Origin: Pseudogymnoascus verrucosus
Taxonomy: Eukaryota
Assembly: GCA_001662655.1 (NCBI GenBank)
Contig: KV460208.1
Length of the DNA stretch: 64,000 nt
Direction: 5' to 3' (one strand)
Shown here: piece by piece, positions 1,356 to 23,249 of the stretch
Numbering within the stretch: the first letter of the stretch is position 1
How the letters are laid out: each line of letters opens with the position of its first letter
Position numbers and translations under genes: made by a program
Notes under the pieces: generated by a model
Databases searched by the model: none
What the model saw: only the letters and a program-made list of their open reading frames with translations
What the model was told of the DNA's origin: nothing

Positions 1356-3261
1356 CTAAAATCCCGTCACACAGTACTCCTTGTCATCATTTCGATCCCA
1401 GTTTTGCGGCCTTGTATCCCGTCTCGTGACGATGCCGTTGTATCTCGGCGGTGGGCTGCTAGGGGTATTCTGCTGATATTGATACTGGTATGGCACCACC
1501 TGCTGCTCGAAACGGCCATAGTTGTCTGTAGTATACCGCTCATCGTGCGTCGGATCATGCCTATCCCTTGGATGAAACCGTTCGCCAGACAGTGCGCCGT
1601 CGTAAGAATAGTCCAGTTGCGGATCTTCTTGCCAATCATACACTTCTTCCGGATTCTGCCTCGTGCCATGCGGAGATCGAGGTTCACGAGAGGCGATGTC
1701 GGATGTAGGGTTGTTGACGATCATCAGATATAGCACATCTGAATTCGCCTCAATGCTCTTAATGGACTTCAAAAGGCCCTGGTCCTTCCTATTTGCTGTG
1801 GATGAGCCAGAGCCATTCACGATACCCCGCACACCTGATATAAGTCGAGGGCGCCCACGTCCAAAACTTCCGCCATGGCCGGACCTCTCCGCTAGATTTG
1901 AAACAAGTCCGTGTATAAGATGCCCACGTTCGTTTCCATTATCCTTTGGCCCTCTACGGCCTTCCCTTTGAGCGTTTCGTTCCTCTTTTCTCGATCTTTT
2001 GCTCGTTTCTTTGTCACTCTGTCGGTCGTTTCCAGATATTGTCGATAGTAAGCTGCCGTTATTGTTGGTCGAAGTCGGGTCAGCGAAGCGGTTACCGAAC
2101 TTTGGAGCTGGTCCGGCAAGGGGTGAGCCTGGATTACCTTCCGCCTAATGATATGTTAGACGACCTGCTACTTAGTCCACGGAGTAAACACTTACAAATC
2201 GTGCCCGTGCTCGACGGTCATGGTAGTCAGAGATAAAATCGGTGATCTTGTCAAGGCGATTGGATGGTTGATCAGTGGGAAGAGATCCGGCCTCGAAAAA
2301 AATTAGAGGAGACGCCTCGGGCATTTGGAATCTTTGGGTTCGAATATTTTCTGGATTTTCGAACCTGTTTGCTGCAGTGTCTTGCAATTGCGAAGAAGAA
2401 ATTGAATTAGTATTGACAATCGTGCTGGATTGCTCTGGCTTGTATGTCATAACCATAGCAAACAATCCATGGGGGACGAAGAGCTCTTCGTTCATTCTAT
2501 CCAAGTATGTCTTTGTTCTGATGAAGGAAAATTAAGCCATCAGTATGGGTGTCTAGATCTTTCGAACGCCAAGTAGGCTTACTTATGATTGGTCTGAGAT
2601 TGTTTTGCATATTGTACAGCAATTGGCAGAGCAGTTGAAATGACGATGGGCGCGATTCCTGGAGCAAATCCCACTCCAAGTGCTGCCACGTTGACAGCAT
2701 CCAGGTAAGGAGAAGACTGTTAATCAAATGCTAGTAAGCGTTGATCGATTATGGAACGAAATTCGCCACCGGGCATGAAATGAGATTAACAGACCTGACT
2801 CTCTCTGTTAAATGACTCAATGAACGACAGAAATGTTTCTTGATCAATGCCGCAACCTTCGAGGGCGGGAGCATACGCCCTGGACCAACCACGACTTTTA
2901 TTTTCTGGCCTGCGCTGAGGGATAATAACGGGATATGAGAGACCTCCTTGAGTTAAAAGCTGCTCCGAGCAAAATTGTTGCTCGTCGTAAATTTCGTTGC
3001 CTGTCTCATTGAACTCTGTTCGTGCATAGTTCTCGTCACTAAAGTGCGCAAGTTGAGACTGCTGAAACCCATCCAGGCTTCTCGAATGGTAGTTCGCTCC
3101 TTCTTATTTCAGTATTTGGAGATTTGAAGTTGTCCTGTGGCAGAGAACCTACTTTCGTATCTTGAAGAGTCGTAGACCCTGGGGGATTGTGAACTCTGGG
3201 CCGAAGCAGCTTCCATGGCAAGGCCAATGCCTGATGATAGAAGACCTCTCAGTTTCCCCAT
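1356..3261 (-). CDS. Conserved fungal hypothetical protein (BuaE-like family, often loosely annotated as 'FAD binding domain protein'), multi-exon
   Basis: Reconstructed ATG at 3261 (MGKLRGLLSSGIGLAMEA). GT-AG introns join family motifs PVIIPQRRPENKSRGWSRAYAPALEGCGIDQETFLSFIESFN, LDRMNEELFVPHGLFAMVMTYKP, DYHDRRARARF, FGNRFADPTSTNNNGSLLS and DVLYLMIVN. The joins checked by eye are in frame. Confidence 0.7.
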
Positions 3262-3765
3262 GGCTTCTGATACAGGCAGAGTCTTTTTGATGAGGAAAGA
3301 TATAGGTTGGCGTATCCAAAAATAGGACGTAAATTAAAATAGTAGATAGGTAAAATGTGTGAATATAAGAAACACCCGAGGAAGCACCTACAGCAATACC
3401 CACCGCTTTATAGAATGGAATTGTGTACTGTCGCGAATATTTGCATTTGCTAAGCCTTTACGAACACCAGTTCCGAATGGGGACATTAAGACGTAGCAAT
3501 GCCACAAAAATGATTACTCAAGAGCATCATAGCAGAAGCCCAAAATGGAAACAAAGTTCGTTGAGGTAGCTCCGAGGTCTTGGCTTCTAGATTCCTCTCC
3601 AGCTTGGCACCTGAAGGTACGCTATTGCCCACACGCAAAACAAGAAAAGATGGGAGTCATCAGAGGAAATACGCAATAGAGCCGGTAGGAAGAACTCTAT
3701 TGCCTGGACTTTGTTTGGTATGTCCCACGACTCCGTCTTAGGCATGAGGCATTCGTTCTGGACTA

Positions 3766-13406: not shown

Positions 13407-16400
13407 CTACTCGAAATAAACAGGAACACCATACACCACCACCGCCGCAGCAGTAAGGTATTTAAAATGACACGCCTTCTTCCCCTCCGCCACCGCCTTC
13501 ACCAAGCTCACCCTCTCCCTCTCCACCACCACAGGCTCCGCCTTCTTCCTCCCCCTCCCCGGCGTCTTCGGCACCTTCTCCACCACCGCCGCCGGCGCAC
13601 TCCCCTCATGCAATCCCCAGGACTCAAACGTGCTCTTTGCAAACCGATCAATATCCTTATCCGTCACATCCCACAGCGTGCCCACCACCGCCGGCGCACC
13701 AGCAATCATATAGCTCATCGGCGGACCGTAGGGCATGAACTCACCCACATCGACGAGGGTAGCGCTGCTACAGCCCATCAAGAACGTCGTCGCGCACGTC
13801 TCGAGCTTCTTGATCGTCTTGGAGCGGATGTACTGCGCGCCGCTGCCGTGGCCAAAGTATAGGTACAGGTCGTCGTTGGCGAGCATGTTTTTGAGTTCCG
13901 TCTCCGTGGGCTCGCGCTCGACGACGCTGCTCCAGTCGTCGAGTTTTTGAAGACCCTTTTCGAAGGTTGCTTGCGTGGTTTTGAGATCTTGGCCGGGGTT
14001 GAGCACGTAGCTGCCTTTGCTCCTGTTGATGTATGTGCCTTCTGGCTGACCCTCCGCAGCGACTTTCTTTTGCTGGCTTAGGATTCGGTCGCGAAGGCAG
14101 CCCATGGATGGGAGTCTTGATACGGCCTGGCCTTCCATGCATGGAAGAGACTCCCAGGGGAGAGAATGCAGAGACTTGTCGAGGATCAGTACCGTGTGGT
14201 TTTGTTCGGTTGAGACGCCAGCGCTAGCTACGGCTTGATGGTAGCAGCGGAGCGCATCGAGCGTATCGAGAACCATGGAGTCGAAGTCTATTTCGTCGTA
14301 TGCATTGCGCTCGCCGTGAAATTGCAGAATGTCCACGACGAAGTAAAGGAGGTCGGTCAATGGCTCGTCTAGATCACTGTCCTCCGAGAATGGATCCCCG
14401 AGGCCGATGAAGAGCTCAAGAATCCGTGGGTCCAAAGTGACACCAGGGCTTGTCGCCTTCTTTCTCTTATTCGTTCGCTGTCGTGATGGAAGGTACTTGT
14501 CCAGGGTATTTTGGAAGGATTTCTGGAATCGTGCCAGCAAGTCGGGTTGTCTTGTATGCTGAGAGAAAATCCCCTTAAATCCACCCAGCCAAACCTTCTC
14601 AACGTTATCAAGGAGTTCCTTGAGCCTCACGTTTAGCTCATCGCGCTCCGCCCACCACGCAATCTTTCCTTCCCGACTCGAGACATCACGACCTCCGTGA
14701 GCACTGGCATTAGCGAGGTCGATGATTTCATGGAGTTCTGCCTTGCCTTGGTCAAAACCGAAAACTTCCTCATCCGCGTCCCGTGAACTATTACGCTCCA
14801 GAGGTACTCGCAGGATGAAAGGAGAGTGCCCGGCCTCGAACTTAGCTAACACAAGCTCATCCCGACTTTCACTAAGCATGACTGATACCACTTTCCAGGC
14901 GGCTGGGATGATGTCGATATATTCTTTTTGAAATCGAGCTTGCTGCATTGCTAGCCGGCCGCTACTGTCATTCTGGTGGGCGTGGTTTTTGATAACTGGC
15001 CATCGGAGATCGCCCTCTTTGGTTGTTTCCGCGTCCACGTCCGACATAACGGCATCTCGCTCCCGTTGAACCGCAATTGCCTTTGCTAACTCTGTGTATT
15101 GTCAGCTCCATCCCTCAATCTTTAGTACTGTAATAATTACGACTTACCTAATGCCGATGCGACAGCGCCCGGCTGGAAAGCCTTGAGTTTGAGCCCGTGG
15201 TAAGTTGAGAGAAGCAGACTCGTTGTATTCAGGAAAGATGCGATTTGAGTTAGTACCCGGGTCGACGAAATTTGCGACGCGGTAGAATAAGCTTCTACCA
15301 GATGATCATGGGCTTGTTTTAGAGGATCCACCCAAGACATAGCCGACCCGCGGGGCAGCGAAGCATTGCGAGGTGAGTTGTGAGTTTTCTTTGGAGGCGT
15401 GGTGCGGACTGCGGATACCCTCTCCAAAGACGCCGTCTTTGCGCCCACAACGGCCGGAAAGGAGATTGTTGAGTCCTGAAGCACGGAATAAACGGAGTCG
15501 GCTGGCAGCAATGCCGAGCTCTGCCGGAACAAACACTCAGCTTGGGCAACATGTGTCTCAATAGCATCGAGAGAGCTGAGGCTGTATTCCGCAGCTTCCT
15601 CCAAAACCATTGACGAGTCCTCGAAACGGTTCCACCGGGCAAATGACCTGGCCTTTTGACGCAAAATAGCTCCCTTGAGAGACACCAAGCCGACACACTG
15701 CTCTGCAATAGAGATTGGCGAAGTTGCTGGTTGTTTTGAGACGGCTTCCCTTTTCCTCGCTGGCGCCTTTGCAACAGTTTTGCGTTGTGGTCTCCCCCTT
15801 TTCTTGGTATCATCAATTGCCAATCTCGATATCTCAGCCTGTAATATAACTGTAACATCAAAGACTCGGTCCAGGTCGCTGATGTAGGTTGAATTGGTCA
15901 GCGAATTGAGTGTACGTTCCGCCTCACCATAGGCAGCCAGTTCAGCAGTCTTGTCGCCATGTGCGCTGTGGAGGCTTCCGAGGTTGCCACTTAGAACCAC
16001 CAAAGTCTGTGCCTCCTTTTGTACCGAAGCCAGGTCCTTAGCTTTCGTAAGAAACTCAGTCGCCTTTTCAGTATTCCCTGCTTTCAACCAAGCGCCGCCT
16101 ATCAATGCCAGAGCCTCCACTATGTAGTTCGTCGAATCAATGCTTACTGCAATTTTGTGGGCTTGCTCGGCGTAATAAATGGTGTCCTGAAACATGCCGT
16201 GGTGGGTATACACCTGTGATAAATGTACGAAGCATCGAAACATTGGTCGCGCCAGCATCCATGCCGAAGGCCCAATATCAGTGTTTTGTACTTGAGGTGA
16301 TCCAGGAGAGGTTGTCGATAAGTTCAGATTGGAGCTTTCTTCCACCAGCTTTTCCATCGCAGCATCATCAGACGATTGGTTCTTCTTGACTCGCGACAGC

Positions 16401-19400
16401 TGGTTCCTCTCTGCTCTCTTCCACGCCCTGGCTATTATTCTTAACCTTCGCTTCGCATGGATTAAAGCCTCTTGTGGTTTGCCTTGCTGGAGAGCAAGAT
16501 CTGAATAAACGATGGAAGCATCCGCTATAATGCGGTCATTCCCATCCCTGTCCGAATAACTTATTGCATTGCTACCATTCGTAGTCTCGTTTTCGTGCTC
16601 CGCAGCTTGATGGGCGCGAGATAGTGTTTCGTCACATTTTTCGAGGTTTCCCACCCTGAGCAAGTAATCGGCGTAACCAACCAGGCGCCGTATCGATGCA
16701 CTCGGGGTTACTCCATGAGAAGAGGCAAAGCACTGAGCCTTGTCTAACGCAAGTCCGGCCTTCCCAGAGTATCCAAGTTCCAAATATTGGCTAGCCAAAA
16801 AACAGTAATCAAGAACGACATCATCCGGGTTTGATCCGCGCGGTATTTCGTCGATGTTGGTAATCATTCGAAGAACAGCCACCCTCGTTTTCCCGTATCC
16901 CTTCATATCTAAGAAATCGGCAACAGATTGTAAATGACCCTGCAGGATGTCCACATTATCAATGTTCTGGGATAATGCTTCTTGGTCTTTGCATTTGTCG
17001 ATAATACTGGACCAGGTTGCCAGATGTGGCTCGATGAGGTCTATTCTTGGATGATCATCCATGAGCTCCAACGTGCTTGTCAATAAAGACCGAATATGCA
17101 TCGTATATTGGTTGAGGCCGGAATCACTGCTGCTAGCAACAACTGAATCAACGCTTGCCAAAGTTGTCGTACTGCGCGCTTCCTCGATAATATCACGGCG
17201 CTGGTCGGGATTCGTTTGCGCAAAATTGCACAGAACCCGGAGTCGTCTGATAGGAAACGTTCTGGCATCATATATGGTGGTGAGCTCCTTGTACACGGCT
17301 TTCTGGAGTTCGGGTGAGGCTTCGGGTTGTCGAGACAGAATATCTTGGATGTGTTCAAAAACCACCCCTTTTTCCTCTGAGGTCCAAGGCTCGTCGTTAG
17401 GCGAGAGGTCTTGAAGCGTGCTAGACGCATTTTTCTTGAGCTTCAGTAAAAGGGTAAACGCCCGGGCAAGCAGCAAGGTATTTTCAGTTTGGTCCCATGC
17501 AGCCCGTATGGGAACGGTTGAGGCAGCGGATGCTACAAGAGCCAAAGCACCGTCGGCGATGATTTCGTCTCGAAGAAGCAGAATAATGTCTCTGGCTTCA
17601 TCTAAACGTCCAGCGAATCGAAGTAAGTCCCCCATACGTTCAAGTTTTGCGGTAAATGCGGCTGATTTTCTCTCCGCTACGGGCCTCGAGCGGATCGAAT
17701 CAATAGATCGACGTAGGGGCCGCAAATGCTGGACATCTTTAGGGCTGGAGGCATCTCGGCGCATATCAAGATGCTGCGAATAATATAAATTCGAAATCCG
17801 GCCGAAGTATGAAGTACGAGCTGAATCCGAATCGTTATTGTTGTCTGGCATGGAGATATCGGCGGCCTCTAGTAGTGCTATGCAGTCCTGAAGAAGAGAG
17901 TCCATAATCTCCCAAGTTAATCGGCCTTGGGTTCGAAGAACTTTGGCCAGATATAGCGCAGAATCCACAGTGCTAGGGACGCTTCTAGCAAGGTGGTGGC
18001 GTCGCTGTTCGAAACGTACTATGACTTTTGTTGATGCTTCATTGCCTGGCGCTTTGCCCAGATATCTGAGTGAAAACCGGGGGCATTGGAGAACTAGGGA
18101 CTCGCATAATTGTCGTGCACCTTCATTTATTGGTGCAGGCGCATCATCACTTGCTCCCGGTTTTTTTGACACCAGCATTATTGCAGCTCTTCTTGCTCTG
18201 GAAACCTCGGTCAGTAATTCGTCGAGTTCTGCACCATCTCCCTTTATAGACGACTCTAGGCCCTGAACTACTGTCATAAGCAGCTCTTCTATGATAGGGT
18301 CGTGCGAATCGGTCCGTAGCTTCAAAGCTACCAGTTTCGCCGCGATAGCGCACTTTTGAGCTTCGGATGAATTCTCGCAGCCTTGAAGCTTTTCAACCCA
18401 TCCTATGGCTTCACCGTCGCATCCGGAATCTTGTGCCAGCGAGGCTAGAAGCTTATGGATCACATATAGCGACGAGCCAGTTGCAACCTTCAGGCCTTTC
18501 TTTTGGGCAGACGTAAAATCCACAAGAGCATTGTATGATTGCAGGGCACATTCGTATGCAGACGCTGCTAGGCCTCGGCTTCGTCGGGTAAAGGCTGCCA
18601 TGCATCGAGAATATGGCTCGAAAATGTCATTGTCCATATCACCCTTATGGCCGGCGATTGCCCACCATGTGTATCGGGTGGAAAATGCAATTGTTTGGAG
18701 TTGAAGTGCTGCATCTGGGCCGACGTGCAATTTTGGTGAAACGGCGGCCGTATCTTCAGAGGATGAGATTGACGGGCTTAGAGAAAGTATAATCTGGGCC
18801 AATGACTCCAGCTGCCGTGCCGATTTTGTCGCAAGAGAAGATGAAATCTTGGAAGTTTGAACCAGAAGTTGAGTCGGCGAGCAGTGATATTCAGGTTGTA
18901 GCTTGGGTATGGAAGCTATAATTGCTGACGGTTTCTTTGATGTCGTAAGTAGTTTGAGCGCTTGAAGCTGGGTTGTAAAGGCGATGCTTAACAAAGGTCC
19001 TTCGGTAGGCACTATTTCGAATTCGAGTAGCTCGTCAAATCTAAGCGGTGACAAGCTTGGAACCGGAGGAGATATATCTTTGGCTGTCTCTTTCTTCGCG
19101 CGGGGCTTCTCGGATGACTTGAATGCAGTATCCAACCGCCTTTTCAAGATCCGTAGCTCCTTCAACGCAAGGTCGTCCAATCCCAGCAATATTAATTTTC
19201 CCACCAACGCAGACATCCCATTTTCTATTTGCATAGGAGGCAAGTCGATAGTTGGTGTTTTCGAAGATTGTAGCATCCGCAGGCATGCGAATGCAATGCG
19301 CGAGCATTCGGCGACGGCTCTCGGACCAGAACCATTCGATGATGTAGATGTCGAGGATGAGGATGGAGAGCGCATCAGGCGGTTTGCGACATTCGGAGAA

Positions 19401-19879
19401 CTGGCAACTCTATTCAATGACCGCGGGTGGAGCGGTGATTGAGGAAGAGAGTTGGACCTTCGTAGAGCTTTGCGAACAGGCGTCTCGAGGTCTCCACGCG
19501 ATTGTGGCTGCTTTCGTACTTGGTTTGAGGGCGTTGCAGCAGCGCTGAGTGTCTTGAGAGTTATATTAATAACTCCGGTGGCTAGGATTGCCTTTTCTTT
19601 TGCAGATAATTCGTCTGCTTCATGGCTATCGGTCTTTTGGGTTGCTGCTAATGTTTTCTTGGTTGCCGGTCTTGTCGTCCTCCCTGGCTTTACCTGAGCA
19701 GTCTGGGTAGCCGCCCTTTTTCGCCCGACTCCTGCAGCAGGAATTGCATCTTTTTGGCCATTTGACGCGGTTTTCGGAGCCAAAAGGTCGCTGAGGGTAG
19801 ATACCGTCGCCGGGGTGCTTGTTGATGTCGAGCTAAGTGCGCTTTTGACCAATTCGAGTTTGTCGTGTAAGGAGGTCAT
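13407..19879 (-). CDS. ESP1: Separase (peptidase C50; Esp1/BimB/Cut1 orthologue), 2 exons
   Basis: About 2100 aa. C-terminal catalytic motifs LYFGHGSG (His), LMGCSS (Cys), PWESLPC and GTLWDVTDKDID. Intron 15147-15092 with GTAAGT donor and GCTGAC branch point. Confidence 0.95.
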
Positions 19880-20236
19880 TCTGGAAGCTGAAAAGGTGCA
19901 TCTAGTATTATCCAAGTCTAATCATTACAAAAACCTCCATGAGGGTATGTAACCACAGCAAGCCGCAAAATTCAACATGATATATTGATCAATTCGATGT
20001 GGATCGGAGAGTCGGTCATGGAGTCGTGACTTTGACGAGCTGCAGGGTCGTTACCACAGCAACGTTGGCGGTGGGGTTGGCAGAATATCATGTATTTGAA
20101 AGGAACGGAGGAAAATCTGAGTCGTACCCTTATGGAAATACCAAACTGAACAGGGACAGCATCCATACCCGAGCTTACCGTTCCTATGTCCACCCAACTT
20201 ATTTCGTATTTACGATAAGATAATATTTAGATCATT

Positions 20237-20851
20237 ATGATCGAAAAAACTGTGGTTCGAAGACTATTTCTCGCTGGTCGAGCTCCTCTTCAAAGCACTG
20301 TTTTCGCAACTGCTGCACGTTATGGCCGACCGCAACCATTGCAACGATATTATTCATCGTTGCCAAGTGTTACCCAGGTCTCTTTCTGGGAGTCTATGAT
20401 CCCAAAGCCTCTGCGCCGAAGCAACAGGCTCAAAACCAAGAAGCCGAAGTCGGCCGAGTGGAACCCAGCGACATTCTTCATTGCCATTCTATTGCTCATC
20501 GGGTCTATGTCCATTCAAATGATAGCACTACGAAATGAGTTCGCAACGTTTATAAGACGAGCCGACGCCAAAATCGACTTACTTCGGGAAGTTATTGAGA
20601 AGGTTCAAAGCGGCGAAGAGGTTGATGTGGAAGGGCTTCTTGGCGCTGGAAATCTCGAGAAGGAACAAGAATGGGAAGAAGTCTTGAAAGAGATCGAGAA
20701 GGAAGATGAACAGTGGACGGAAGCACGCAGAACGAAGCCAAGACGACGTTCACCACAGGCAGTCGAGAGTGCCAAAATAGAGACCGCCGGCGCTTCCGAT
20801 GACACTCCGAGGCCAAAGCAAACATCCAATGCACCGCGTGGATTCTACTGA
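20237..20851 (+). CDS. Conserved fungal single-TM protein, likely mitochondrial (DUF5321-like)
   Basis: Arg/Ser-rich presequence-like N-terminus, SFWESMIPKPLR, WNPATFFIAILLLIGSMSIQMIALR, and LLREVIEKVQSGEEVDVE...EQEWEEV motifs. Single exon. Confidence 0.75.
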   Translation: MIEKTVVRRLFLAGRAPLQSTVFATAARYGRPQPLQRYYSSLPSVTQVSFWESMIPKPLRRSNRLKTKKPKSAEWNPATFFIAILLLIGSMSIQMIALRNEFATFIRRADAKIDLLREVIEKVQSGEEVDVEGLLGAGNLEKEQEWEEVLKEIEKEDEQWTEARRTKPRRRSPQAVESAKIETAGASDDTPRPKQTSNAPRGFY

Positions 20852-20963
20852 GGAATCTTGAGGCCAGGGCTCATCATCCGGTTCAATCTACTACGACCTA
20901 CACAACACAACTAAGTTGAAGGCAAATATCCAAGGTAAGAACTTTCATATTATTTCCCAATTC

Positions 20964-21056
20964 TTGAGATGACGAAAAATTCCGGATGTAAACCATTACT
21001 ATACTCCGAGAGCGCAAAACCCATGTGGAGATTTCCGTTGCCTTCCTTCTGATCAA
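20964..21056 (+). ncRNA. Box C/D snoRNA, snR52-like (predicted guide for 18S Am420, yeast numbering), copy 1, intron-encoded
   Basis: Terminal stem TTGA/TCAA, box C ATGACGA (20969-20975), box D CTGA (21049-21052). The guide GTTGCCTTCCTT pairs with 18S AAGGAAGGCAGC. It lies in a GTAAGA (20935)...TGCTAAC...CAG (21124) intron. Confidence 0.85.
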
Positions 21057-21214
21057 ACCTACCAACGTCTTATGTGTTACGGTACTTCTGATGGGAAAGA
21101 TGCATTGCTAACAACATATAACAGAGACCACGTTTCCACTACCTCAACACGGCCAATTGAAACCAATTGAAAGCAAATATCTATGGTAAGAATTTTCATA
21201 TTATCCCCTATTAC

Positions 21215-21306
21215 TTGAGATGACGAAAAATTCCGGATGTAAACCATTACTATCTCCGAGAGCGCAAAACCCATGTGGAGATTTCCGTTGCCTTCCTTCT
21301 GATCAA
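21215..21306 (+). ncRNA. Box C/D snoRNA, snR52-like, copy 2, intron-encoded
   Basis: Nearly identical to copy 1 (one 1-nt indel). Box C 21220-21226, box D 21299-21302. It lies in a GTAAGA (21186)...TACTGAC...CAG (21374) intron. Confidence 0.85.
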
Positions 21307-21431
21307 ACCTACCTATGTCTTATGTGTTATAAGCCTTTTATTGTGAAAGATTTGTTACTGACAAGACATAACAGGGAACATTGTCTCTACCGACGGTAGC
21401 ATGTGTAAATATATGCTACATGTTGATATTA

Positions 21432-22655
21432 CTATGAAAGCATGTCCTTGAAGGGACTGTTATTTCTTGTCAAAACTTTCGCCGCAGCCTGGGATGGCCT
21501 ATCCGATGTGCCCGCTCCAAGTACATGGAGGTGATCAACAAGGCTCGGAAGTAGCTTGTCCGAAGACATTTCAGCTCTTACGCCCAACTCTCCCCTCTGG
21601 CCTGCATCTAAATTCTCAAAGAAGAGCTCTTCTCCCCGTACGCCACCAAGGTTGATGATTGCAATGGGCATGCCTTGGTCTTTAGCCCGCCTGGCTAACC
21701 GCCAAGCTGAATATGTCGCCAGAGACGTCCCAATAACTAGAAGTCGTCCCGCAGAGTCAATTGCATGCTCTGCAGCCTCTTTCACAGGGGATGCTATGCT
21801 CTCGCCGAACATTACAACAGCTGGCTTTAATATGCCAGCGGTACTAGAAGGCTCGAAGGCGCCATCCTTGTCCACCTTGACGGTGGATTTAGTGCCCGCT
21901 GGAGTAATTGGCGGGGTAGCTAGGCATGTCGGACATGCTGGGTATCTAAAAGTAGTATATGGTGCCCCTGGGAGATCCACATCTCCATCCGGGTTTAGCT
22001 TCATGCCTTTAGCCCGGCGACTCTCTGGGTCTTCGGAATCGAGCGCCCCAGATGCGAGAGCTTCTTCAAGCAGCTCTGCCCATGCTGGATTGAGACGCGC
22101 CAGTTCTTTCTGGAATATATCGCGAGGTAGCTCGTTGTGGCAAGATATACATCTTAGGGACCTTAGATAGCCATGGAGCTCCAGAGCTGGGAGCTCCGGA
22201 TGAGCAAGTAGATGAAATGAATCAACGTTCTGAGTCACCACGCTCTTGATAAATCCCATATGTCCTAAATCCCTAATTGCGCGATGCGTTGCATTTGGTT
22301 CCGCTCTGTCCAAGTTTGGCCAACCTAGAAAGCTACGTGCCCAGTATCTCTTCCGTGCTTCGTGATTTTGCACAAATTCATGGTAGTAAATCGGCCTATA
22401 CGTCTTGTTCACCCTATATGTGCCATTGGTTCCCCTGTAATCCGCCAGACCTGACGCAACAGATATTCCCGCGCCAGTCAATATAACAGTCGAATTGGGG
22501 CTTGTCGATCTTTCGTCTAGAGTGGGTGCTGGGGACGCATTCAAAAAGTTTGACAGTGCTGCAACAGCTCCAACTGCGGTATTGGCGTTGCGGGGTAGGA
22601 TCCTGGGAGGAGGGAGGGGTCCCGTGTAGGGTATCCTCATAAGTGGCTTGCGCAT
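21432..22655 (-). CDS. NAD-dependent sirtuin, class II (SIRT4-like)
   Basis: GAGISVASGLADYRG, RKRYWARSFLGW, TQNVDSFH, ELHG, Zn-binding CISC...CPTC, PDGDV, KPAVVMFGE and GTSL motifs. Single exon. Confidence 0.92.
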   Translation of the reverse strand: MRKPLMRIPYTGPLPPPRILPRNANTAVGAVAALSNFLNASPAPTLDERSTSPNSTVILTGAGISVASGLADYRGTNGTYRVNKTYRPIYYHEFVQNHEARKRYWARSFLGWPNLDRAEPNATHRAIRDLGHMGFIKSVVTQNVDSFHLLAHPELPALELHGYLRSLRCISCHNELPRDIFQKELARLNPAWAELLEEALASGALDSEDPESRRAKGMKLNPDGDVDLPGAPYTTFRYPACPTCLATPPITPAGTKSTVKVDKDGAFEPSSTAGILKPAVVMFGESIASPVKEAAEHAIDSAGRLLVIGTSLATYSAWRLARRAKDQGMPIAIINLGGVRGEELFFENLDAGQRGELGVRAEMSSDKLLPSLVDHLHVLGAGTSDRPSQAAAKVLTRNNSPFKDMLS

Positions 22656-23249
22656 CTGATGACCATCAATGCCACTTTACACTGGCAGCCACAGCGTTTC
22701 AGTAGACGTGGCCGGTATGTTATGCGGTTGGGATGATCCGTAAAGCTTCAAATCCATGTTGAAGCTTGGTAGTTTACGGTCCGCGTCATTCCGAGCCACC
22801 AATGACCCAGTAAATACTCGCGTCGGCCAAAATGCCGAGGAAGGACCGTGCATGATGGCCAGAACAGTATACAAGCCCTGTTGTTCCTGGGCTTGTTCAT
22901 AGGAACAATTAATAAAAAATATAGTCTCAGTAACTCAGAGGCTATTAGAGCTTTGCAGCAAGGCGGTTATCTAAAAATTAATCCAAAGGGAAAATCTCCA
23001 TGATCTTCAATTACACTTTTTCAATTCCCTTTAGACTTTTTGCCGCGCCGATTAGCATCAAAACAGTCAGCCTCATTATTAGTGGGGCCTTTGCACCAAA
23101 AACCAGGAAACCTTACGACAGTCGGGATACTGAAATAGTATTCCTAGAATAATCAACTCCGAACTGGCCGCGCAATGTCGTTGCGTAGTCTTTTCATATG
23201 CGCCGTTACAGATATATTCCTCCGCGTTGATAGCCTGAAGGCTTGAGGA

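Follow-up and report, generated by a model that had tools for sequence, protein, structure and literature searches.

The snR52/Z13 family of box C/D snoRNAs has been described in several fungi, and much about it is known already: its family identity, its 18S target, its expression from introns, the arrangement of one snoRNA per intron and the existence of snoRNA paralogues in fungi (PMC2780460 and PMC5824354, in their accessible parts). Nc CD42 of Neurospora crassa is an intron-encoded box C/D RNA of ~92 nt with a single 12-bp D guide to the equivalent of A420, listed as target 18S-Am417 (12/0, D), and it shares the element CGGAUGUAAAA with the RNAs described here (Liu et al. 2009, PMC2780460, accessible part). 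Unlike our pair, Nc CD42 is listed there as a single gene, the snoRNAs of N. crassa being mostly singletons, and it has CUGA as box D' and UGAUGA as box C where the pair has CCGA and ATGACGA. In the case of Aspergillus fumigatus, Afu-200 is a 91-nt C/D snoRNA in sense orientation within intron 3 of the protein-coding gene Afu1g12390, with Am415 in the 18S as its predicted target (Joechl et al. 2008, PMC2377427, accessible part). It differs from our pair in that it occupies an intron of a coding region, is present in single copy and has a second target, Gm1422, listed in the same part of that paper. The SNR52 of Saccharomyces cerevisiae belongs to the same Rfam family and has the same 18S target. 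In yeast, however, SNR52 is an independent polymerase III gene, as opposed to the RNAs described here, which lie in spliced polymerase II introns. Yeast snR52 also guides Um2921 of the 25S rRNA (PMC11121408, accessible part), in contrast to our pair, which is without an A-loop guide.

Two kinds of host gene are also useful for comparison. The same snoRNA is found, one per intron, in the gene for Scd6/LSM14 (Sum2), whose product binds RNA and whose snoRNA-bearing intron splits the coding region; the introns described here are duplicated and belong to an unrelated gene, DUF5321, where they follow the stop codon. Hosts of the UHG/GAS5 type, known from mammals and represented in N. crassa by clusters I-V, likewise hold one snoRNA per intron with short non-coding exons in between (PMC2780460, accessible part), but they have no conserved long ORF and carry different snoRNAs, whereas our locus has a 204-aa ORF upstream and copies of one family. 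What may be new is an snR52 host other than the LSM14 intron, namely two introns in the 3' UTR of DUF5321, combined with the duplication. No description of an snR52 pair in DUF5321 3' UTR introns was found in the literature searched; supplement S9 of PMC5824354, on the snR52/snR56 clan, lay outside that search and may cover the paralogues and hosts of the family.

The locus lies in a 64-kb stretch of Pseudogymnoascus DNA, called the window here (Table 1). Its best explanation, to which we assign a probability of roughly 80%, is a pair of functional snR52/Z13 paralogues, each in its own spliceosomal intron of the DUF5321 3' UTR.

Table 1. Coordinates of the snR52/Z13 pair, its introns and the neighbouring genes, as positions of the window.
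Feature	Position	Strand	Evidence and remarks
DUF5321 protein gene	20237..20851	+	single-exon ORF, 204 aa; Pfam PF17254, E 3.1e-62; probable host gene
DUF5321 stop codon	20849-20851	+	
3' UTR segment, 83 nt, from stop codon to first donor	20852..20934	+	unbroken cover by spliced contigs X1 record 3 and X4 record 20
Intron 1, 190 nt, GTAAGA...CTAAC...CAG	20935..21124	+	spliced contigs; alternative acceptor 2 nt downstream, 21126
snR52/Z13 box C/D snoRNA, copy 1	20960..21060	+	Rfam RF00335, 92.5 bits; stem-to-stem core 20964-21056
Copy 1 D guide GTTGCCTTCCTT and box D CTGA	21037..21052	+	12 bp with 18S, fifth pair = A
Internal non-coding exon, 61 nt (59 nt with alternative acceptor)	21125..21185	+	between both joints in X1 record 3; after the joint in X4 record 20
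Intron 2, 189 nt, GTAAGA...CTGAC...CAG	21186..21374	+	X1 record 3 skips 189 nt, GT..AG
snR52/Z13 box C/D snoRNA, copy 2	21211..21310	+	Rfam RF00335, 91.4 bits; stem-to-stem core 21215-21306
Copy 2 D guide and box D	21287..21302	+	same sequence as copy 1
Last host exon, start	21375..21431	+	X1 record 3 runs on from 21374 to 22316; abuts or overlaps SIR2 3' end
Sir2-family gene, convergent, 407-aa ORF	21432..22655	-	Pfam PF02146, E 1.3e-29; downstream neighbour, outside the snoRNA unit

As the original prediction had it, the two snoRNA introns lie between convergent genes, now recognized as DUF5321 and Sir2-family ORFs. The 580-nt gap between them carries a direct repeat with a period of 250/251, its arms (20916-21130 and 21167-21380) being 84-90% identical, which bears out the predicted tandem duplication of ~250 bp with a near-invariant core: from terminal stem to terminal stem, the 93-nt core of copy 1 and the 92-nt core of copy 2 differ solely by one 1-nt indel, at 21002/21252. 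VE04_04206 of Pseudogymnoascus sp. 24MN13 shares 99% identity with the DUF5321 protein from end to end; other database proteins, one of them from another Pseudogymnoascus strain, reach 86-92%. The second acceptor and the Sir2 stop codon are just 57 nt apart, and the convergent transcripts must therefore meet or overlap at their 3' ends. An ORF of 1580 aa precedes the DUF5321 gene on the opposite strand (15137-19879, -).

Both copies match Rfam RF00335 (snoZ13_snr52) over the full model (1-101 of 101; E = 1.5e-17 and 3e-17) and far above its gathering cut-off of 47 bits, and they are the only gathering-level Rfam matches in the 64 kb. The prediction of two snR52-like box C/D snoRNAs is thereby confirmed, as are the elements it assigned to each core. 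A 4-bp terminal stem (TTGA 20964-67 with TCAA 21053-56 in copy 1; TTGA 21215-18 with TCAA 21303-06 in copy 2) encloses box C ATGACGA (20969-75 and 21220-26), the D guide GTTGCCTTCCTT (21037-48 and 21287-98) and box D CTGA (21049-52 and 21299-302). Box C departs once from RUGAUGA (consensus ATGATGA), by a U to C change at position 5, and should still bind the core proteins. Among the matches listed, this variant occurs in 5 of 111 aligned cores, namely both copies of the window and the loci L033, L088 and L113. A conserved element in the D'-C' loop, AGCGCAAAA (21010-21019 and 21260-21269), resembles the sense strand of the 18S just 3' of the target (GCGCGCAAAT) and not its complement.

The target was located on rDNA from contaminant contigs in prokaryote assemblies, belonging to fungi other than this species; the pieces, assigned by Rfam, were a complete 18S (L133, 1133-2939), LSU 1-2329 (L013) and LSU 2362-3401 (L135), with L132-L136 found by pattern searches in the same contaminated assemblies. 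The D guide pairs over 12 bp, one of them G-U, with AAGGAAGGCAGC at positions 420-431 of the L133 18S, which belongs to another fungus, and the fifth pair from box D falls on an adenosine equivalent to yeast A420 in that same 18S. The orthologues Nc CD42 (18S-Am417) and Afu-200 (Am415) are listed with this same site as their target. The extended target motif is present in all three fungal 18S fragments that cover the site. The earlier claim that the guide complements a conserved 18S sequence, and that the D+5 rule points to A420, agrees with this pairing, and the D guide is predicted from the complementarity to direct 2'-O-methylation of the A420-equivalent adenosine. A further 6 bp could form between GGATGT of the snoRNA and ACATCC directly 5' of the 18S target, a possible additional pairing along the lines of van Nues et al. 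2011; with the two partners invariant, covariation offers no test of it, and snR52 has 0 occurrences in the main text of that paper (PMC3116282). A match to the 18S motif in a viral contig was rejected as not being rRNA. Thirteen contigs in bacteria-labelled assemblies that were matched by a fungal primer (L001-L013) are fungal rDNA, as in the case of L132-L136. The LSU fragment L136 carries a group I intron. In L013, the stretch matched to the 18S model is ~440 nt longer than the corresponding part of the model, which points to insertions.

Evidence for splicing comes from contigs of four public runs (X1, X4, X20 and X23) placed on 20100-22700. The runs were labelled as possible RNA by guess; their contigs give neither strand, ends nor abundance, and stretches without cover in X1, X4 and X23 are uninformative. 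A 1363-nt contig of X1 (record 3) covers 20576-20935, 21126-21184 and 21374-22316, while a 423-nt contig of X4 (record 20), a run with another organism label and from another study than X1, covers 20573-20932 and 21125-21186. After shifting, the joints can be placed at 20934|21125 (X1), 20934|21127 (X4) and 21185|21375 (X1), with GT..AG on the + strand only. Intron 1 is seen removed in two runs, X1 and X4, and intron 2 in X1; X20 contigs cross all four splice sites unspliced. Since the contigs are joined exactly at GT..AG, both introns are real, and the exact loss of both, together with cover confined to exonic parts, fits a cDNA origin of these runs. The skip over intron 1 measures 190 nt in X1 and 192 nt in X4, again with GT..AG and with the cut moved by 2. 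At this point there is a tandem acceptor, CAGAG (21122-21126): the X1 contig fits CAG, on the assumption that X1 has the A>G change at 21125 listed for X20, and that of X4 the AG located 2 nt further downstream.

Each predicted canonical intron, holding one snoRNA apiece, is thus supported both by its elements and by assembled contigs from which it has been removed, and the predicted 61-nt non-coding exon between them is found in the X1 contig, with 59 nt when the X4 acceptor is used. Both donors read GTAAGA (20935, 21186), the CAG acceptors end at 21124 and 21374, and the branch sites are CTAAC at 21108-12 in intron 1 and CTGAC at 21358-62 in intron 2. The layout is the same in both copies, with 29 nt from donor to stem and 55 nt from the end of the stem to the branch adenosine. 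In mammalian work, the optimum distance from snoRNA to branch point is ~50 nt, and the spacing of 55 nt fits splicing-coupled assembly. Both copies lie wholly inside spliced introns, in sense orientation to the host, and are intron-encoded snoRNAs. Among the differences listed for the related strains X1 and X20, many are in the flanks and none in the cores. Copy 2 (21216-21317) stands out in run X20, with a summed contig depth of 265 as against ~24 beside it and with one contig in which an unrelated 5' flank is attached to the core at 21216; this probably reflects a further copy elsewhere or cross-placement of the copies. In run X23, a contig of 10,345 nt matches only the 3' half of the core (21261-21304), has other flanks and stands at 3x the depth of other X23 contigs; it is probably the snR52 of another organism in the run.

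Other fungal snR52 loci can show how common this arrangement is. A scan of metagenome contigs with the 21-nt guide-plus-D-box gave at least 114 loci, 80 of them with long flanks, and the snoRNA is present in all 114 of the matches listed. In 78 of these 114 listed loci, the snoRNA is preceded on its own strand by an exon for a Scd6-like Sm domain, with 24-183 nt between the end of the exon and the snoRNA; the count is 56 of 76 for the listed loci with 250 nt or more of upstream sequence. Pfam PF12701 was confirmed in L088 and L025. Among the loci listed, the usual host is thus an intron of Scd6/LSM14 (Sum2), and the arrangement in the window is derived. A second copy nearby was found in 4 of the 114 listed loci (L033, L048, L083 and L127, with L048 and L083 near-identical to each other), and the order DUF5321, two copies, SIR2 in only one, L033. 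The proteins of L033 are 59% (DUF5321) and 69% (SIR2) identical in amino acid sequence to those of the window, its DUF5321 stop codon is in the same position, and its two copies, at 91.7 and 89.3 bits, both pass the Rfam cut-off. Whereas its cores have hardly changed, the intron flanks of L033 can barely be aligned to those of the window; GTAAGT donors, CTAAC branch sites and acceptors are nonetheless kept for both copies. L127 (150-621) is built differently, with two snR52 copies 335 nt apart in consecutive introns either side of the LSM14-domain exon of an Scd6-like gene, and is a second, independent route to doubling of snR52. In L048 (1650-2330) and L083 (180-860), two copies lie 217 nt apart, each between a GT donor and a CTAAC/CTGAC...AG acceptor; neither LSM14 nor DUF5321 and no long ORF was found nearby, and the host looks non-coding.

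The nature of the host can be judged from the same contigs. The original prediction had left a choice between a tiny non-coding transcript and the 3' UTR of the DUF5321-like gene. In two runs, spliced contigs continue from the first donor for ~360 nt in the upstream direction without a break and so reach into the DUF5321 coding region (to 20573/20576). This continuity favours the second option, with the DUF5321 mRNA most likely hosting the pair in its 3' UTR. As the coding region itself is a single ORF without interruption and can be aligned from end to end with homologues of ~200 aa, the snoRNA introns are the only two introns of the gene, both in its 3' UTR. A UHG-like host would have no conserved ORF, whereas here the spliced contigs are continuous with the conserved 204-aa ORF, and both copies are removed with spliced introns, as opposed to transcription from an independent polymerase III gene of the SNR52 type. 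A separate short non-coding transcript of the UHG type, starting between the DUF5321 stop codon and the first donor, is nonetheless worth weighing, as non-coding hosts of a UHG-like type, with a single snoRNA in each intron, are known from N. crassa (PMC2780460, accessible part), the tandem snR52 pair of L048/L083 sits in a region without a long ORF nearby, and contigs cannot tell overlapping transcripts apart, a start within the 83-nt segment giving the same contig path. This reading is unlikely, however: those 83 nt (the first donor had been placed 84 nt past the stop codon in the original prediction) would have to hold both promoter and start site, the spliced contigs of two runs reach well beyond them into the coding region, and DUF5321 is still directly upstream in L033 despite the diverged intergenic sequence. 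The part of the X1 contig that reaches into the Sir2 gene may be a merger of two convergent transcripts. With the DUF5321 3' UTR as the favoured host, the contribution of its two snoRNAs must also be considered. Given the LSM14 host in 78 of the 114 listed loci, the pair could be redundant or decaying duplicates, with the working snR52 encoded by a third copy in an Scd6/LSM14 intron. L088, an LSM14-intron snR52, has the same ATGACGA box C and an exon 96-97% identical to Pseudogymnoascus proteins (90-92% to those of other Leotiomycetes), and in the close relative X20 one contig has another sequence 5' of the core (joined at 21216). We infer three snR52 copies in this fungus, the ancestral one in the LSM14 intron and the DUF5321-linked pair. 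That the pair is redundant or decaying, with the third copy as the working one, is quite improbable, since both cores are intact and one indel apart, both introns are spliced, and in L033 the cores are kept almost unchanged while the flanks have become nearly unalignable, the signature of selection on both copies. As to the age of the pair, identical aligned columns number 44/60 and 68/112 in the flanks of the two window paralogues and 11/100 and 45/125 in those of the L033 paralogues, and the variable stretch is alike within each of these genomes and different between them. This pattern fits an old duplication with gene conversion or, alternatively, independent duplications.

The function of the conserved 5' half of the RNA is a separate matter. 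The element TTCCGGATGTAAA, upstream of D' CCGA, had been proposed as a possible second methylation guide, with the A-loop uridine U2921 of the 25S or some other RNA as its target. The proposal draws on yeast snR52, which guides Um2921 plus an 18S site (PMC11121408, accessible part), and on conservation of the element above 90% over 88 distinct family members among the matches listed; in an alignment of 111 cores (88 distinct), again among the matches listed and with the last 21 nt fixed by the search itself, box C, TTCGGATGTAAA, CCGAGAGCGCAAAA and CCATGTGGA are ~90% conserved. The pairing results speak against it. Candidate duplexes were scanned over the rRNAs, covering the 18S, the 5.8S and LSU model positions 1-2329 and 2362-3401. 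In the A-loop region (L135), the longest contiguous pairing of either copy is 6 nt, with a duplex of -10.7 kcal/mol. Over all of the scanned 18S, 5.8S and LSU, the 5' region forms no duplex better than -18.5 kcal/mol, as against a mean of -19.2 for 30 shuffles, 10 of which reach -20.3 kcal/mol or lower although the coarser step of the shuffle scan favours the real sequence. The other rRNA matches of 9-10 nt are about as many as a rough estimate gives for chance. The 14 nt directly upstream of D', moreover, are the least conserved of all (0.3-0.5), and Nc CD42 is listed with a D target only in the accessible part of its report (PMC2780460). An A-loop guide is not a defining feature of RF00335, Nc CD42 being, in that same part, likewise without one. 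Gm1422, the second target of Afu-200, was tried as a target for the 5' half and rejected, with only -11.1 kcal/mol for the 18S region there; GAGGCAA near Gm1422 partly matches the D guide itself and is therefore no sign of a D' guide. A second guide in the 5' half is accordingly highly improbable, and this part of the original prediction has to be given up for rRNA: a role of the 5' half as a second rRNA guide is not supported by the pairing scan, and the RNA appears to be a single-guide snoRNA. The conserved CGGA could pair with UCCG inside the RNA, as modelled in the Rfam consensus structure.

With two intronic, single-guide snR52/Z13 paralogues in the DUF5321 3' UTR as the preferred reading, a pathway can be proposed. 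RNA polymerase II would transcribe the DUF5321 gene beyond its stop codon, and the introns of 190 and 189 nt would be spliced out. The excised introns would presumably be debranched, and exonucleases would trim them to an RNA of ~93 nt protected by the C/D core proteins. In the resulting snoRNP, the D guide would pair with the 18S and bring about 2'-O-methylation of the A420-equivalent adenosine. This processing route, the accumulation of mature RNA and the methylation itself are all expected from established snoRNA biology, and the 3' UTR junctions may have an effect on the stability of the host mRNA. The exon junctions sit 83 and 144 nt past the DUF5321 stop codon, a position at which the spliced mRNA could be marked for EJC-dependent NMD; by analogy with what has been described for 3' UTR introns in Neurospora, it may be an NMD substrate. 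A more far-reaching scenario, in which the snR52 intron unit moved from the Scd6/LSM14 intron into the DUF5321 3' UTR and was tandemly duplicated there, which gave the gene its only two introns, with every spliced mRNA marked for EJC-dependent NMD, is conceivable but doubtful. If it were true, the locus would trade protein output against snoRNA output, and a protein gene would be in the course of becoming a GAS5-like host.

The known function of the snR52 family is unchanged by this locus; what is unusual is its position, which is lineage-specific. For the genome of a Pseudogymnoascus species, the analysis adds two unannotated but evidently genuine snoRNA genes and two 3' UTR introns. For the family, it documents the move of a snoRNA out of a host intron conserved as widely as that of Scd6/LSM14 and into a new host, with duplication, and both the relocation and the duplication bear on snoRNA mobility and intron gain. 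Should hosting in the 3' UTR trigger mRNA decay, the DUF5321 gene would be a fungal parallel to the snoRNA host genes of mammals.
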